DNA of 14,121 nucleotides from a virus. Lineage: Duplodnaviria; Heunggongvirae; Uroviricota; Caudoviricetes. The notes below the pieces were generated by a model that was not told the origin of the DNA, searched no databases, and worked only from the letters and a program-made list of their open reading frames with translations. Position numbers and translations under genes: made by a program. Location: the IMG/VR virus record IMGVR_UViG_2778261420_000023; one strand, 5' to 3'. Shown here piece after piece: positions 6,369-14,121 of the stretch (the first letter of the stretch is position 1; every line of letters begins with the position of its first letter).

Positions 6369-6562
6369 GAAGGTTTTCTCGCATTGGTTAAGATTCAGGA
6401 CGTGAAACCAACACGGGGGGAGCGCCGCCCGACACTCTCGGCATCTCGCAGATCAACCCGGCATCGCGCAGGGGGTCAGGCGGCATTGTGGCGGCTCACG
6501 TCTGAGTGCCACACGCCAACATATACATAAAAATCAGTATGTAAACATCAACCAGAATCACC

Positions 6563-6589
6563 GAACAACCTGGAACAACCACGAACAAA
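6563..6589. promoter_or_regulatory. Three GAACAAC repeats at 10-bp spacing (TTGTTC on the coding strand) upstream of the capsid operon
   Basis: gaacaac at 6563-6569 and 6573-6579, gaacaaa at 6583-6589. On the minus strand they lie between the upstream terminator and the capsid start, beside a weak promoter-like stretch; candidate activator sites. Confidence 0.5.
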
Positions 6590-6603
6590 TAATTTACAAA
6601 ACC

Positions 6604-6630
6604 TGAAAAAAGACCCGGAAAAAATCCGGG
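6604..6630 (-). terminator. Rho-independent terminator separating the replication/regulation module from the capsid operon
   Basis: Minus-strand RNA: CCCGGA-UUUUU-UCCGGG hairpin (6614-6630) followed by UCUUUUUU (6604-6611); 12 nt downstream of the stop of gene 6642..6890. Confidence 0.6.
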
Positions 6631-6641
6631 CCTTTATCGCT

Positions 6642-6890
6642 TTATTGTTTCACTGGCTCCCGCATTCTGCGTCTTATTTTCCACAAATATTCGATCATCG
6701 CTTCCACCTGCTCACGGTTGGTTGCGAAAATTTCCCCGGTCAGTGAGCTACGCAGAAAATCATGATGATCCACAAAAAATAACGCATCGGAAGAAAGCAA
6801 CCGACGATATTTTTTTGCTGTCGTGGTTTCCAGATCATCAAAACCATGAAGCTTTTTATGTTGCTGAACTTCTTCAAATGTCACTGGCAT
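6642..6890 (-). CDS. Hypothetical protein
   Basis: 82-aa ORF; ATG at 6890 preceded by AAGGGGGA SD; overlaps the 3' end of the ProQ/FinO-like gene by 10 nt. Confidence 0.5.
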   Translation of the reverse strand: MPVTFEEVQQHKKLHGFDDLETTTAKKYRRLLSSDALFFVDHHDFLRSSLTGEIFATNREQVEAMIEYLWKIRRRMREPVKQ

Positions 6891-7423
6891 GTATCCCCCT
6901 TTGCTGCCCGGCGCTGGCGCTTGTGCTTCTCATTCAGCACCATCAGCCGTGTTTCTGCCTCCTGCTGTTCCTGTGGTGTCACTTCCCCACATGGCTGGCC
7001 TTTCAGGTCGTAACGTGCGCCACCAGCTATCAGGGCGCGGTAATAGCGCGGAGACTGCGCATAGGATGCCAGCGTCGCACGTAATACCCCCGACCCGAAT
7101 GCCAGCCCCCTGACGGCGATATCCTGCATCAGGTCGTCGAATATCCCCACCTTAAGCGGCTTCGGTGCTTTATGGCTGAATAAGTCAGGCCACATCTCAG
7201 TGAGGCGGTTAACGCGTCGGCGGTTTTTGCGCTGCCTTTTGGTCATATGCTGCCACGGTGTCGCCCCTGCGGTCTTCTGTTTGCGGCTCTGCTGTGCGTT
7301 CTGATTATCGGGTATCACTTTATGCGCCGATGTGGTTTTATCCTGCTCTTGCGCCGCCTGCGTCGTTTTCTGCGGCGTGCCGTAAATGCCTTTCGGCTTC
7401 CGGTTAATGGTCAGCGTTGTCAT
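6881..7423 (-). CDS. ProQ/FinO-domain RNA-binding protein (RNA chaperone-like)
   Basis: PKPLKVGIFDDLMQDIA...LRATLASYAQSPRYYRALIAGGARYDLKGQPCGEV aligns by eye with the E. coli ProQ N-terminal FinO domain (PLKIGIFQDL...LRSALRLYTSSWRYL...RVDLDGNPCGEL). Basic N- and C-terminal extensions. ATG at 7423 with GGGGGAAGG SD. Confidence 0.75.
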   Translation of the reverse strand: MTTLTINRKPKGIYGTPQKTTQAAQEQDKTTSAHKVIPDNQNAQQSRKQKTAGATPWQHMTKRQRKNRRRVNRLTEMWPDLFSHKAPKPLKVGIFDDLMQDIAVRGLAFGSGVLRATLASYAQSPRYYRALIAGGARYDLKGQPCGEVTPQEQQEAETRLMVLNEKHKRQRRAAKGDTCQ

Positions 7424-7885: not shown

Positions 7886-7949
7886 GCTGTCTGTTCTCCG
7901 GTTTTAACGTTGATTGTTACGCTTGTTTACACCCTTACGGTGAAATTCT

Positions 7950-8072
7950 GCGGGTTATAATCGCACTTTTGCGGGTTATAACTGCCGTTTTGCGGGTTAC
8001 GTGCGGGTTATTGATTTCCTTTTTATTCATGCAGTTAATGCACTTATACACAGGATAACCCGCATAACCCGC
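7950..8072. repeat. Candidate replication origin: four direct GCGGGTTA iterons, an AT-rich spacer and two inverted copies
   Basis: Direct copies start at 7950, 7971, 7992 and 8003 (21/21/11-bp spacing); AT-rich 8011-8050; inverted ATAACCCGC at 8055-8063 and 8064-8072. Immediately 3' of the primase/helicase gene. Confidence 0.6.
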
Positions 8073-8095
8073 AACTTTTTACATCACACAGGGGG

Positions 8096-10990: not shown

Positions 10991-11192
10991 GTCTCACCCC
11001 CTGAATATTCGCGTTAATCATTCCGGCACGTTCTGCGAGTTCCTGTAATGATTCCCTTGTTGCGACAATGGCTTCATCTGGCAGGTGGTAATTACACACC
11101 ACGCGACCTTTATCCACATTGACCAGTAGCTGCCCGGTAAATTTCTCACGAAACTGAACGCGGTTAAGGTCGGTAAGTGACAGGTTAATCAT
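10980..11192 (-). CDS. Hypothetical small protein
   Basis: Start placed at ATG 11192 (MINLSLTDLN...), preceded by GGGGGAAG SD; 8-nt overlap (ATGATTAA) with the upstream ORF stop. Confidence 0.45.
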   Translation of the reverse strand: MINLSLTDLNRVQFREKFTGQLLVNVDKGRVVCNYHLPDEAIVATRESLQELAERAGMINANIQGVRHVQ

Positions 11193-11388
11193 GGTCTTCC
11201 CCCTGGCGAATACGGGCAGCAAATACCATCACGCAGCCATCAGGAGATTGCTGACGCGCTTCCTGTTCGCTGGTGGCCTCAATGGTAATCACGCGCGGTT
11301 GTGCCGTGCTCAGGGCGATAAAACGCCAGATGTATTTATTCAGGTTGTACGAGTCCCGCCCTTGCGGGTGTCTGGTATAATTTCTCAT
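11185..11388 (-). CDS. Hypothetical small protein, first gene of the leftward operon
   Basis: 67-aa C-terminal segment of the long track ORF, starting at ATG 11388 with GAGG SD 6-7 nt upstream; the rest of the 370-aa ORF is judged spurious. Confidence 0.35.
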   Translation of the reverse strand: MRNYTRHPQGRDSYNLNKYIWRFIALSTAQPRVITIEATSEQEARQQSPDGCVMVFAARIRQGEDHD

Positions 11389-11464
11389 AGCTGCCTCGAT
11401 ACGCTTTCTATCGTTGGTGGTTAGACGCCCTGCATGTGTGCCACCACTGCGGGGCGTTGTTGTT

Positions 11465-11514
11465 TGGTGCATTGCACCATTCGGTTTTAACCTATCAATA
11501 AGTGAATCGCACTT
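11465..11514. promoter_or_regulatory. Palindromic operator-like sites in the divergent control region
   Basis: TGGTGCA-T-TGCACCA (11465-11479) and AAGTG-AATCG-CACTT (11500-11514); the core TGAATCGCAC recurs at 11548-11557 overlapping a TATACT -10-like hexamer (11543-11548) upstream of the plus-strand RHH gene. Confidence 0.5.
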
Positions 11515-11578
11515 CAAGCCTTTCTCTGAAATTTTTTTTGTGTATACTGAATCGCACCAACTTAGAGAGGATTCAGTA

Positions 11579-11758
11579 ATGGCAACAGGTTCAACAAATA
11601 ATAAGTCGCAACAGTTAAATGCCAGATTCCCGCATGATGTTGTTGCAGACTTAGAAAAAAATTTAGATGAAGGTGAAAGCAAGGCGCAATTTATAGTTAC
11701 TGCCGTTAAAGGTGAGATCAAACGCCGCCAGCGCCGCAAGGCCAAAGAGCAGGAGTAA
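11579..11758 (+). CDS. Small ribbon-helix-helix-like DNA-binding protein (candidate repressor/switch protein)
   Basis: 59 aa (MATGSTNNKSQQLNARFPHDVVADLEKNLDEGESKAQFIVTAVKGEIKRRQRRKAKEQE): beta-strand-then-helices pattern typical of Arc/MetJ/CopG proteins, basic tail. ATG at 11579 with GAGAGG SD 8 nt upstream. One of only two plus-strand genes called. Confidence 0.5.
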   Translation: MATGSTNNKSQQLNARFPHDVVADLEKNLDEGESKAQFIVTAVKGEIKRRQRRKAKEQE

Positions 11759-11815
11759 CCATCACCAGCGCCGTGGTGTAAGGTATTACGGCGCATTGCT
11801 ATGCAGGACAACACA

Positions 11816-11989
11816 ATGACCGATAAAGAATTGACCAAAACATTATCACCGACACGGAAAAGACGGCGCAGAAAGATAGAGCATGAATCAGAAAGATTCG
11901 CGCCATGTGCTTTTGCCCTTGAGCAATTCCTTAAAGAGTACAGGGAAAAGCGCTCATTGCAGGTATGGCAACGAACTGAACCAGACTGA
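11816..11989 (+). CDS. Hypothetical small basic protein
   Basis: 57 aa from ATG 11816 (AGGA 8 nt upstream), downstream of the RHH gene and upstream of a plus-strand terminator; no motif recognised. Confidence 0.3.
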   Translation: MTDKELTKTLSPTRKRRRRKIEHESERFAPCAFALEQFLKEYREKRSLQVWQRTEPD

Positions 11990-12055
11990 TTGCATTGCCC
12001 ACCAGCCGCAAATGTGGCATTGTTGGTGATGCTTTTGTTTTCCCTTGTTCCCACT

Positions 12056-12085
12056 GGCGACCCTTTTGCGGTCGCCTTTGTTTTG
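12056..12085 (+). terminator. Rho-independent terminator of the short plus-strand unit
   Basis: GGCGACC-cttttgc-GGTCGCC stem-loop (12056-12076) followed by TTTGTTTTG. Confidence 0.55.
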
Positions 12086-12122
12086 CCTGTTATCCGGCAA
12101 TAGTGGCGCTTCACCACACGGT

Positions 12123-12208
12123 TGATATAATTCCCCTGCACTGATCCATTTTTTTCGCAGCAGGTTAATTGTTCAGAAAGGCGGTTCCTTATCGGGGCCG
12201 CTTTTTTT
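12123..12208 (+). ncRNA. Candidate small RNA unit: extended -10 promoter plus intrinsic terminator with no ORF between
   Basis: TGATATAAT at 12123-12131 matches extended -10 consensus TGnTATAAT; an 8-bp-stem hairpin (12181-12201, two G.U pairs) is followed by seven T (12202-12208). Predicted transcript about 70 nt, antisense to read-through from alpA. Confidence 0.3.
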
Positions 12209-12349
12209 ATGCCTGAAAATACCCGATAACATGGCTTTTTAGTTTCACCAGGACGAACGAAGCCCCGCCCCTGTTCGGGCGTATATCCAGTATTCATGGT
12301 TAGATCTCTGTGTTAGTGGATGGGTGGCGGCGGTGCGCCGCCAGCCTGA

Positions 12350-12553
12350 TTAGTGAACTGCCTCGCGGCTGTCCTTCCATGCCAGAACTTCGGATAAAGA
12401 CCAGCCAACGGAACGACCGCCGAGTTTACGCCGTGATGGGAATTGTCCAGTCTTCTCCAGGCGATACCGACATGAGCGGCTCAGGCCTGTAAGTTGCTGA
12501 CATTCTTTTTCACGTATAAAGCGATCAGCGCTTAACACTATTGCCTCCGTCAT
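12350..12553 (-). CDS. alpA: AlpA-family transcriptional regulator / excisionase-like protein
   Basis: 67 aa; LTGLSRSCRYRLEKTGQFPSRRKLGGRSVGWSLSEVLAWK matches the AlpA helix-turn-helix signature (TGLSRSTIYRL..G.FP....LG.R.VGW...E...W). Confidence 0.85.
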   Translation of the reverse strand: MTEAIVLSADRFIREKECQQLTGLSRSCRYRLEKTGQFPSRRKLGGRSVGWSLSEVLAWKDSREAVH

Positions 12554-12570
12554 TTCTCAAAGAGTCATTT

Positions 12571-12600
12571 GGTGTCTTATTGTGTCGTATTGTTCCCGCT
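12571..12600. promoter_or_regulatory. Three 10-bp-phased TGTSTC/TTGTTCC repeats 18-47 bp upstream of the alpA start codon
   Basis: ggtgtcttat / tgtgtcgtat / tgttcccgct; same motif family as the arrays at 12811-12870 and 6563-6589. Confidence 0.45.
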
Positions 12601-12810
12601 AGAGTGATGAATGGCAAATATTGGTGACGGTCGTTTTACAGATATGGGGTAATTAGAATAAAAATACTTTTAATTCATTGTGATGTAGTAGCGTAAAATT
12701 TTGCTTTTACGCCTTTTTTACATATTTTTAAGAGTGATTCGCCAGTGTATAAAAAAACAGTATACATATAAAAATCAAATGGTTATGAATGAGTTTGATT
12801 TTTAATCCGC

Positions 12811-12870
12811 TTGTCCCATTTTGTTCCTTGTTGTTCGTCGTTGTGTCTCGTTGTTCCACGTTGTGTCCGT
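12811..12870. repeat. Six tandem degenerate 10-bp units (TTGTYCNNNN) just 3' of the integrase stop
   Basis: ttgtcccatt / ttgttccttg / ttgttcgtcg / ttgtgtctcg / ttgttccacg / ttgtgtccgt, exact 10-bp register. Confidence 0.6.
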
Positions 12871-12891
12871 TCTGAAAAATCACGAAAAAAA

Positions 12892-14121
12892 TTATATTTC
12901 TCTGGCTATTGGCAGTGTGGTTACGTTTTCGTGAGTACCTGCCAGTATCTCTAACCGCTCTGTCCACATGTCCAGCGCATTACGTTTCGCATCGAGATAA
13001 CGGGAGTGGTTATAGACTCGCTGCATCCCTGGCATCTGGTGAGCGGTGAGTTGTTCGACAATATGCGGATCCACGCCTAAATCATTCAGCATCGTGGTAA
13101 ACGTGCGCCGTATATCGTGTAGTGACCAGTGCGGATGGTTTAATTTTTTGTGCGTGAATCTGCCGTATTGCGACACGCTGGCTTCCTGTTTCAGTTCCCC
13201 GAGTAATAGCCCTGTGTGTCGGTTCTGCTCCACCAGCCGTGTGACGAACGGTAAAATGCTTTCCGGTATTGGCCTGAATATGGCTACCTTCGTTTTGCTG
13301 TGCTCCTTCGGTACTGTCCAGAGCATTTCCTTAAAATCCCACTCCCTGATCTCCGACAGCCTCAGTTCTCCGGTTCGGCAACCAAACACAATCAGGAGGC
13401 GGATTAGTGCGCTGTAGTAGGGCGGGAATATTTTTTTATCCAGCGCCTGTAATAATTCGCCCAGTTCTTTGTTACTAAGCACGCGTTCGCTTATGCCTGG
13501 TTTTTTACCAACGTCCACCACGTTGAGATCATCCAGAGCGTTACTGACGGCATAGCGGCGTTTACGACAGAATTTAAGCGCCTGTTTGCACGCCTGCATC
13601 ATGTGACCAGACGTTACGGGGGATTTTTTGCGTATCCGGTCAAAACAGGCCAGCCAGTGACGTAATTCGCATTTATCCAGTGGCATGTTACCGATGTGCT
13701 GTATGACGTGATTATTCAGGCGACTTTTCAGGCATACATAATCGACACGGTTTTCCTTTACGTGCGTTTCCAGCCAGTAACTGATCGCATCGCCAACCGT
13801 TACGGGTTTTAACGCTTCCTGCACAGTGTAGTTCAGTTCATGACGTGGGTTTTTCCCTTCTGCCAGCCATGCACGACACTTTGCGGCTTTTTCCCTGGCT
13901 GCTTTAAGGCTCAGATCGGGATAGTTTCCCAGCTTCAGACGTTCCGGTGTGGTATCCCTTCCCGTTCCAGCCCTGTAGGTGAAGTACCAGGTCAATTTAC
14001 CTGATGTTAAATATTTCACGCTCAGATTACCGCCATCGCTATAGAACGTATTTTTCTCCGCTGGCTTACCATAAAGTTTTCTTAACAATGTATCGTTCAG
14101 TTTGTTAAGCGCTCTGCTCAC
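12892..14121 (-). CDS. int: Tyrosine site-specific integrase, P4-type with N-terminal arm-binding domain
   Basis: 409 aa; N-terminus resembles the DUF4102 arm-binding region of CP4-57 IntA; catalytic signature present (GCRTGELR, HDIRRT, LTAHQ, RVYNHSRYL). The start is GTG at 14121..14119 on the window edge, so the true start may lie beyond the window. Confidence 0.88.
   Translation of the reverse strand: MSRALNKLNDTLLRKLYGKPAEKNTFYSDGGNLSVKYLTSGKLTWYFTYRAGTGRDTTPERLKLGNYPDLSLKAAREKAAKCRAWLAEGKNPRHELNYTVQEALKPVTVGDAISYWLETHVKENRVDYVCLKSRLNNHVIQHIGNMPLDKCELRHWLACFDRIRKKSPVTSGHMMQACKQALKFCRKRRYAVSNALDDLNVVDVGKKPGISERVLSNKELGELLQALDKKIFPPYYSALIRLLIVFGCRTGELRLSEIREWDFKEMLWTVPKEHSKTKVAIFRPIPESILPFVTRLVEQNRHTGLLLGELKQEASVSQYGRFTHKKLNHPHWSLHDIRRTFTTMLNDLGVDPHIVEQLTAHQMPGMQRVYNHSRYLDAKRNALDMWTERLEILAGTHENVTTLPIAREI

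Follow-up and report, generated by a model that had tools for sequence, protein, structure and literature searches.

Organisation of the island and of its int–alpA region

The window analysed here, i.e. the whole stretch of 14,121 nucleotides of the IMG/VR virus record IMGVR_UViG_2778261420_000023, is, judging from its gene organisation, a capsid-forming phage-inducible chromosomal island (cf-PICI), and this organisation matches that reported for such elements (bioRxiv 10.1101/2022.09.08.507074). Two arrays of short repeats lie in it between the integrase gene (int) and the regulatory gene alpA, and the present analysis concerns their structure, their recurrence in related islands and the protein that binds them, probably AlpA itself. 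According to gene calls and Pfam, the genes of the window are all situated on the minus strand. A tyrosine integrase (Int) with an N-terminal arm-DNA-binding domain (14121-12892; Pfam PF13356 and PF00589) is followed by alpA (12350-12538, 62 amino acids; Pfam PF05930, E = 3e-18), by a variable early region and by the gene of a DUF927 primase-helicase (10219-8096). Downstream of the primase are SSB and then a ProQ/FinO-like protein (6881-7423), and the genes of the capsid, prohead protease, portal, connector, HNH, TerS and TerL proteins occupy positions 6368-372. The open reading frame (ORF) of alpA reaches an ATG at 12553, while the start in RefSeq relatives is the GTG at 12538, which is preceded by GGAGG. 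Close relatives of the int–alpA region were found in 821 of 5,426 complete Escherichia coli genomes.

The distal array consists of six 10-bp units at 12811-12870, beginning 21 bp past the int stop codon (12892-12894). On the minus strand its units read G(G/A)(A/C)ACAA, and on the plus strand TTGT(T/G)(C/T)C, namely TTGTCCC, TTGTTCC, TTGTTCG, TTGTGTC, TTGTTCC and TTGTGTC with starts at 12811, 12821, 12831, 12841, 12851 and 12861. The proximal array, also read on the minus strand, contains three units, GGGAACAAT, CGACACAAT and AGACACCAA, at 12570-12599 (plus strand TGGTGTC, TTGTGTC and TTGTTCC, starts at 12570, 12580 and 12590), 17-46 bp upstream of the ATG at 12553. The spacing is exactly 10 bp in both arrays and, within each of them, all units are on one strand. 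Tandem Repeats Finder reported a period of 10 for both, with an additional period-20 row for the distal array. Between them lies an AT-rich spacer with conserved blocks (12600-12810; 26–31% GC). An earlier note, made from the sequence of this window, had described the six units just past int, the three units upstream of alpA and the AT-rich DNA between them, and all three descriptions hold.

Statistics and conservation of the arrays

Counted by itself, the hexamer TTGTYC occurs in the window about as often as expected (18 copies against 18.3), TTGTKYC is not enriched either, and the signal lies in the phasing. Self-matching at a lag of 10 was scored in 50-nt segments over the whole 14 kb, with 300 dinucleotide shuffles as the null. 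The four highest scores in the window were found at 12805 (34/50), 25 (33/50), 6552 (28/50) and 12565 (25/50), and the maximum in shuffled sequences averaged 24.1 and never exceeded 30. The distal six-unit array is, in this way, far beyond chance and above all 300 shuffles. The proximal three-unit array alone is not significant in the lag-10 test (25/50); it shares its motif with the distal array and is conserved. Two additional TTGTT(T/C)C copies at 12034-12051, also listed in the earlier note, scored 11/20, which is inside the null range, and are treated here as chance matches.

A weight matrix trained only on units from the att arms of other loci served as an independent test. It gave runs of at least three phased hits in the window at only two places, 12810-12869 (six units) and 6560-6589; shuffled sequences gave 0.04 runs of at least three per sequence and none of at least four. 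Two of the three proximal units reached at least 6 bits with this matrix (6.0 and 8.6).

Altogether, 52 distinct int–alpA intergenic sequences, 67–99% identical to that of the window, were collected, and conservation of the core was examined in 12 diverged representatives (67–93% identical). In these 12 relatives, conservation reaches 0.90 in the TTGT core of the distal units and 0.65 at the remaining unit positions (p = 0.0003). The proximal array has two forms among the relatives, with three or four units, which differ by an exact 10-bp insertion or deletion. The arrays are thus real, non-random and conserved with a 10-bp period. They are also present in homologous islands, including EcCICFT073.

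Slippage easily yields short tandem repeats, and the proximal array taken alone is within chance, so functionless tandem duplication in a non-coding spacer had to be considered. This explanation is extremely improbable in our opinion, because the core is conserved at a 10-bp period while the flanks of the units diverge, insertions and deletions comprise whole 10-bp units, and islands of different genera have the motif again at four further functional positions. Helical phasing between the two arrays was also examined: the distances from the distal array to the conserved TTTGCCA (189, 200–204 and 212 bp) track the number of distal units called by the matrix, and they are not counted as evidence.

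A similar layout with another motif was observed in locus L131, from another island family in which int and alpA are neighbours: the stop codon of int is followed by three phased GAATATC units (1293-1317), and AATATC copies occur near alpA (~1600-1640).

The arrays could also be regarded, together with the AT-rich stretch, as a replication origin, in which the units would be iterons for the primase-helicase placed around a melting region, as in the origins of Staphylococcus aureus pathogenicity islands (SaPIs) and PICIs. The TGTTC core resembles the P4 iteron TGTTCACC. Moreover, two sets of short repeats around AT-rich DNA fit, at least superficially, the published origins of Gram-negative PICIs (PMC6092414). 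Just this type of origin, however, is found at 7940-8075, adjoining the 3' end of the primase gene, and its iterons, GCGGGTTAT, are different. In loci L001 and L006 the primase is different and the iterons are TGTTCACC, yet the TTGTYC arrays are identical. Origin iterons would also fail to account for the copies found in the att arms and at a promoter (see below). Replication iterons, considered for the P4-like core, were excluded on the grounds of the separate origin and of the arrays remaining unchanged with a different primase, and we give the origin explanation hardly any probability.

The origin at 7940-8075 itself comprises two copies of GCGGGTTAT, an AT-rich stretch and four copies of ATAACCCGC. 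A similar set of iterons is found once more a few hundred bp outside position 1 of the window, near the far end of the island (L005 2680-2830). It is also present in L006, whose primase differs and which has the P4-like TGTTCACC iterons (L001 10414-10573). The two sets could be a two-site arrangement like ori and crr of P4 or a relic of module exchange.

Other positions of the repeat unit

The search for phased runs of the unit, which reads GNNACAA on the opposite strand, covered 30-kb loci, of which about 15 kb are flanking chromosome. All runs of three or more units that it gave lie inside the islands, and none in the flanking chromosome. They occupy the far (left) att arm (three units), the promoter of the capsid operon in cf-PICIs (three or four), the int–alpA region (five or six, plus the proximal array) and the int-proximal (right) att arm (two runs of four). 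A motif scan of this kind over the window and related islands had been proposed in the earlier note, and its outcome is that the phased runs recur at att arms, at the capsid promoter and in the int–alpA region. EcCICFT073 has the same distribution, including the equivalent of the proximal array as a phased run. The copies in the att arms lie outside the window and went unseen by the earlier note; they make the reading in terms of recombination directionality concrete.

When a whole island is considered, its largest direct repeat is a module of 76 nt shared by the two arms, which consists of two copies of GACTACACC at 12-bp spacing and then three GNNACAA units. Units stand beside this doubled motif in both arms of L001/L005, L002-L004, L006 and EcCICFT073, all of these sites being outside the window.

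Within the window, the capsid-operon array is situated at 6563-6599 with GAACAA units on the plus strand; in the gene sense (minus strand), the units are TTGTAAA, TTGTTCG, TTGTTCC and TTGTTCG with starts at 6599, 6588, 6578 and 6568. The block TTTGTAAAT with three TTGTTC-type units is kept in 31 distinct regions upstream of the capsid operon, including those of islands whose AlpA is only 51–67% identical. A putative late (capsid) promoter on the minus strand (6518-6545; TTTACA, 16-bp spacer, TATGTT) is situated 17 bp downstream of the last unit. The units start 23-54 bp upstream of TTTACA, and this TTTACA is invariant across the 31 regions. Upstream of the late promoter there is a terminator-like hairpin (~6604-6634).

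The capsid-operon leader contains a conserved hairpin, CUCA-GACG-UGAG (6488-6512, minus strand), with compensatory changes (to CUCC..GGAG and to CCAG..CUGG) in islands of several genera, and L004-type cf-PICIs have an intrinsic terminator directly before the capsid start codon. These two observations suggest that antitermination or a leader RNA may control the late operon.

Probable assignment of the units to a binding protein

Both Int and AlpA may be proposed as the protein that recognises the units. In the window's own family, the two proteins are too conserved to be told apart as the binder, and a scan of viral contigs with a single protein gave only AlpA relatives at least 87% identical, all with one motif. 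A protein database search gave only 19 hits. More distant islands came from a genome scan with an alignment (20 loci) and from a second scan of viral contigs. The covariation comparison comprised about 100 related islands, with about 30 distinct arms for the doubled motif. The matrix trained on units of the window's family found no arrays in the distant loci of the genome scan. When the regions upstream of int in the distant islands were read by eye, the same arm module was recognised, built from other unit sequences: three phased units, 13–14 bp and the doubled motif, directly upstream of int. Distant islands also carry two phased units directly upstream of alpA.

The doubled motif occurs only at the two att arms and never in the window (L006 15385-15405 and 30245-30265; L001 16361-16380; arms of L002-L004). 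In L006 its centres are about 132 and 84 bp from the candidate core ATTTATAA. Across the islands compared, the form GTGTAGTCA accompanies an Int N-terminal signature ..PQR, GTGCAGTCA accompanies ..SQR, and GTGTATCAC accompanies SDKKL..KLER. Phased units of the TGTTC type are found with all three of these Int types, together with the AlpA helix CRTTRY(M/L/I)MEK. Units of the forms CGTACA, TGTATA and GGTACA are found with the AlpA helix CRMHRYNLEK in L093 and L096. Because these two islands have the GTGTATCAC doubled motif in common with L085, L115 and L153, the change of their units is not due to Int. The two alpA-proximal units switch in step, reading TTTACA..TATAC in L093, L096 and L089 instead of GAAC..GAAC. 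From this covariation it may be concluded that the phased units follow the recognition helix of AlpA, and the doubled motif the N-terminal domain of Int. The doubled GACTACACC-type motif is probably an integrase arm-type site.

The tandem arm sites P'1-3 of phage lambda are also about one turn apart. For this reason, and since Int has an arm-DNA-binding domain and the same units are present in both att arms near the core, the units may be suspected to be arm-type sites for the N-terminal domain of Int, in which case Int could regulate alpA or its own 3' end through the intergenic copies. The arms, however, already hold the doubled motif, which has the geometry of arm sites and covaries with the N-terminal domain of Int, whereas the phased units remain of the TGTTC type across three Int types and change with AlpA at a constant Int type. 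Besides, they are not confined to the arms: the intergenic arrays are about 1.4–1.8 kb and the capsid-promoter array about 7–8 kb from the att core. It is very unlikely, in our opinion, that Int is the protein for which these units serve. The earlier note had offered an Xis/AlpA-like protein or an arm-binding protein as the cooperative binder; the first part of this proposal is favoured by direct repeats one turn apart in runs of at least three, at both att arms and at promoters, that track the AlpA helix, and the second part, in the sense of the N-terminal domain of Int, is disfavoured.

Another protein may be the binder, e.g., a small island protein, the inducer from the helper phage or a host winged-helix regulator of the PhoP/OmpR type. 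Small proteins common to all islands compared are indeed several (YlcI/YnfO-like, orf81, DUF4222 and orf97), and the TGTTTA and TGTTCA units of distant islands resemble PhoP half-sites. A factor of the helper induces alpA (PMC6092414). On the other hand, the units turn to GTAYA exactly where the AlpA helix switches, which is not expected of a conserved host factor; they are spaced by 10 bp in runs of three to six and not arranged in 11-bp pairs. In both arms they stand beside the Int sites, where a directionality factor would be needed, and AlpA is the only such fold found. Recognition by a protein other than AlpA appears unlikely on this evidence.

AlpA and published experiments

The AlphaFold2 model of AlpA (pLDDT 86.9) is a winged helix-turn-helix. 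Its best Foldseek matches are the GIsul2 excisionase (8c3t; TM 0.83–0.89, 38% identity), followed by RdfS (8dgl), Pukovnik Xis and TorI, and a sequence search also finds 8c3t (E = 6e-7). AlpA thus models as an excisionase-type winged helix, i.e. the fold of recombination directionality factors, and no other island protein was found to have an excisionase fold.

Experimental data are available for EcCICFT073 (NC_004431.1), whose Int and AlpA accessions are the same as those of L002 and whose AlpA is 95% identical to that of the window. Fillol-Salom et al. (PMC6092414) reported that the helper switches on alpA, that AlpA of EcCICFT073 activates its own promoter and is without effect on Pint, and that expression of alpA alone suffices for excision and replication. 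The primers of the PalpA reporter in that work span from the last ~30 nt of int to inside alpA, and it follows from their positions that the AlpA-responsive fragment contains both arrays. No paper defining AlpA sites in PICIs was found in a literature search.

Putative promoter and opposite-strand features of the intergenic region

A consensus scan of positions 12300-13000 gave a sole sigma-70-like match, TTGCCA-N17-AACAAT, although sequence alone fixes no transcription start. This putative alpA promoter on the minus strand (12589-12617) has TTGCCA at 12617-12612, a 17-bp spacer and AACAAT at 12594-12589, so that its -10 hexamer is the first proximal unit. TTTGCCA is invariant in the 12 diverged relatives, and both forms of the proximal array keep the 17-bp spacer from TTTGCCA to (A/C)ACAAT.

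On the plus strand, a terminator scan revealed a conserved hairpin, GCGTAAAA..TTTTACGC, followed by T6 (12691-12719), which resembles an intrinsic terminator and would end transcripts made in the direction opposite to int and alpA. Among 15 variants the T-run does not change and one stem pair shows covariation (A-U in 8, G-C in 4, broken in 3), with a weak consensus folding energy. A conserved TTTACAG (12635-12641, plus strand) stands ahead of the hairpin, which lies ~50–85 nt downstream of it. The proximal units are co-oriented with TTTACAG on the plus strand and start 45–65 bp upstream of it, which puts them on the helical face that the units also take at the capsid promoter, two turns further off. 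Such a geometry would allow the intergenic arrays to act mainly on something other than alpA, namely on an RNA of ~50 nt driven by AlpA, divergent from alpA and antisense to read-through from int. We consider this decidedly unlikely. If such an RNA does exist, it might partner the ProQ/FinO-like protein of the island and would add an extra RNA layer to satellite induction.

In the islands L077-L094 and L099-L156, which have an extra ORF between int and alpA, a terminator-like hairpin precedes alpA; its loop carries two phased units, e.g., GCCCTCGAACTGTAACGAACGAGGGC, and a T-run follows. Operator and terminator appear to be superimposed upstream of alpA in these islands.

Possible mode of action of AlpA

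In our opinion, both arrays are probably operators of the island's own AlpA, comparable in kind to those of Apl, Cox and Vis, rather than arm sites of the integrase or iterons of a replication origin. This assignment, drawn from sequence comparison, is favoured because the anatomy of the arrays matches the binding mode of regulatory recombination directionality factors. Head-to-tail cooperative binding and DNA bending have been shown for lambda Xis, P2 Cox and 186 Apl. Recombination directionality factors bind tandem repeats one turn apart (PMC7498355). The arrays share with operators of the Xis/Cox/Apl/Vis type the spacing, the runs of at least three units, the copies in the att regions, a cognate protein with an excisionase fold and sites that track the specificity of the protein, the last of these being based on few independent examples.

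Direct binding by AlpA, its stoichiometry, the bending and, for each array, whether the effect is positive or negative are what we infer. In this model, every GNNACAA unit would be occupied by one AlpA monomer in a head-to-tail arrangement, with neighbouring monomers one helical turn apart, and the monomers would cooperate in binding and bend the DNA. At the att arms, beside the probable integrase arm site, AlpA would direct excision. At the alpA promoter, where six units lie ~220 bp upstream and another three or four cover the putative -10 and the beginning of the transcribed region, it would set its own level. At the capsid and packaging operon, with units upstream of the -35, it would switch on the late genes. 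The six-unit array may be a high-affinity nucleation site, and the distal and proximal arrays together may remodel the AT-rich promoter region by looping or counter-silencing, resulting in the reported positive autoregulation. At a high level of AlpA, occupancy over the -10 units would cap alpA expression.

A number of observations weigh against this assignment. The proximal units cover the putative -10 together with some 20 bases at the start of the transcript, where a repressor would be expected rather than the activator that AlpA is reported to be. With respect to the direction of their gene, the intergenic arrays have the opposite orientation to the capsid-promoter array, as the earlier note had already remarked and as the sequence confirms. 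The Pint reporter of EcCICFT073 includes the att-arm arrays, to judge by the primer positions, yet it was unresponsive to AlpA (PMC6092414), and the phased-run search gave no such array at the late operon of this island. The contrast with an MH-type helix is provided by L093 and L096, two islands with almost the same arms, to which L089 adds no more than its alpA-proximal units. In L097 a helix of the MH type occurs in another context, and no comparable sites were found there. The group with the helix CRTTRYELEKK mixes sites of the GTTC, GAAC and AATATC types. The 11-residue helix segment is therefore not the whole code, and either other residues contribute or another factor is involved. The small proteins shared by all islands compared are further candidates for the binder.

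In Gram-negative phage-inducible chromosomal islands, the capsid-forming ones among them, AlpA acts as the master switch. A defined operator, GNNACAA with 10-bp phasing, provides a testable map of its targets, i.e. the alpA promoter, both att arms and the capsid and packaging operon. Such a map would explain how one protein of 62 residues couples autoregulation, excision and late gene expression. It may also be used for the annotation of satellites, for predicting cross-talk between AlpA variants and for engineering delivery vehicles based on PICIs. The proposed mode of action is classical, and the gain consists in a precise and testable assignment rather than in a new principle.

Comparison with known systems

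Apl of phage 186 binds 6-bp direct-repeat operators that are 10–11 bp apart, five at attP and seven between the promoters pR and pL; at least three adjacent operators are needed, the binding is cooperative and the DNA is bent (PMC7498355). AlpA is similar to 186 Apl and P2 Cox in being a small winged-helix protein, and the runs of three to six units of the type found in the window are likewise at att arms and promoters. Unlike Apl and Cox, which repress switch promoters, AlpA of PICIs is reported to activate (PMC6092414). It belongs to PF05930, without sequence relationship to these proteins. A third class of sites, upstream of the late structural operon, is a further difference, and binding of AlpA is what we infer here.

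P4 Vis regulates the late promoters of P4, and its gene heads the late transcript. In the brief account given in PMC7498355, Vis is a small satellite regulator that acts in excision and binds at att. It resembles AlpA in its genomic setting, a helper-dependent satellite; this likeness is one of description. P4 differs from the island of the window in its overall organisation and in its immunity system.

RdfS of ICEMlSymR7A (8dgl) and the GIsul2 excisionase (8c3t) are the closest solved folds to the AlpA model. RdfS is described as oligomerising on DNA and controlling excision and transfer genes (PMC11963761). Both proteins come from other mobile elements, and their likeness to AlpA is one of fold.

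In helper-embedded PICIs (HE-PICIs), a doubled co-oriented attP motif, tgTGTATTGCa, was found ~132 and ~81 bp from the centre of attP, and it was left open whether Int or AlpA binds it (Tommasini et al. 2023, PMC10111431). This motif resembles the doubled GACTACACC in its geometry (132/81 against ~132/84 bp) and belongs with the same class of Gram-negative PICI integrases; it differs in sequence. It corresponds to the doubled motif and not to the TTGTYC units. By the covariation described above, the doubled motif is assigned to Int and the phased units to AlpA, which addresses the assignment left open for HE-PICIs.

AlpA of Pseudomonas aeruginosa has more than 140 residues and a 21Q-like fold, recognises a single 6-bp element between the -35 and -10 and loads onto RNA polymerase (PMC9371919). 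It shares with the PF05930 AlpA the name and the action at a promoter, and there is no repeat array in the P. aeruginosa case. Its antiterminator mechanism was considered and rejected as that of a namesake, set apart by the described size and fold (>140 against 62 residues) and by a single element instead of arrays.

Summarizing these comparisons, AlpA would act in the manner of Apl, Cox and Vis, while its modelled fold is that of RdfS and of the GIsul2 excisionase. It differs in the reported sign of regulation and in the class of sites at the structural operon.

Additional observations

A scan of the whole window against Rfam gave no match at gathering thresholds. At 11185-12297 on the minus strand there is a 370-aa ORF without a Pfam match, which overlaps a conserved 62-aa YlcI/YnfO-like gene on the plus strand (11801-11989). 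In RefSeq relatives this stretch is annotated variously as Icd-like pseudogenes and as small plus-strand genes.

Integrases that are 99.5–100% identical (L006 compared with L001/L005) were found at two chromosomal sites, within preA and within yifB. These insertions have the same arms, and ATTTATAA is the core candidate in L006.

The second strongest lag-10 signal of the window, 33/50 and above the 300 shuffles, comes from five GTGACA units on the minus strand (TGTCAC on the plus strand) with 10-bp spacing at 28-76. Their motif differs from TTGTYC. This array lies just past the last ORF of the packaging module, is conserved in L005 and L006, and could be a site related to terminase and cos or a site of another regulator.

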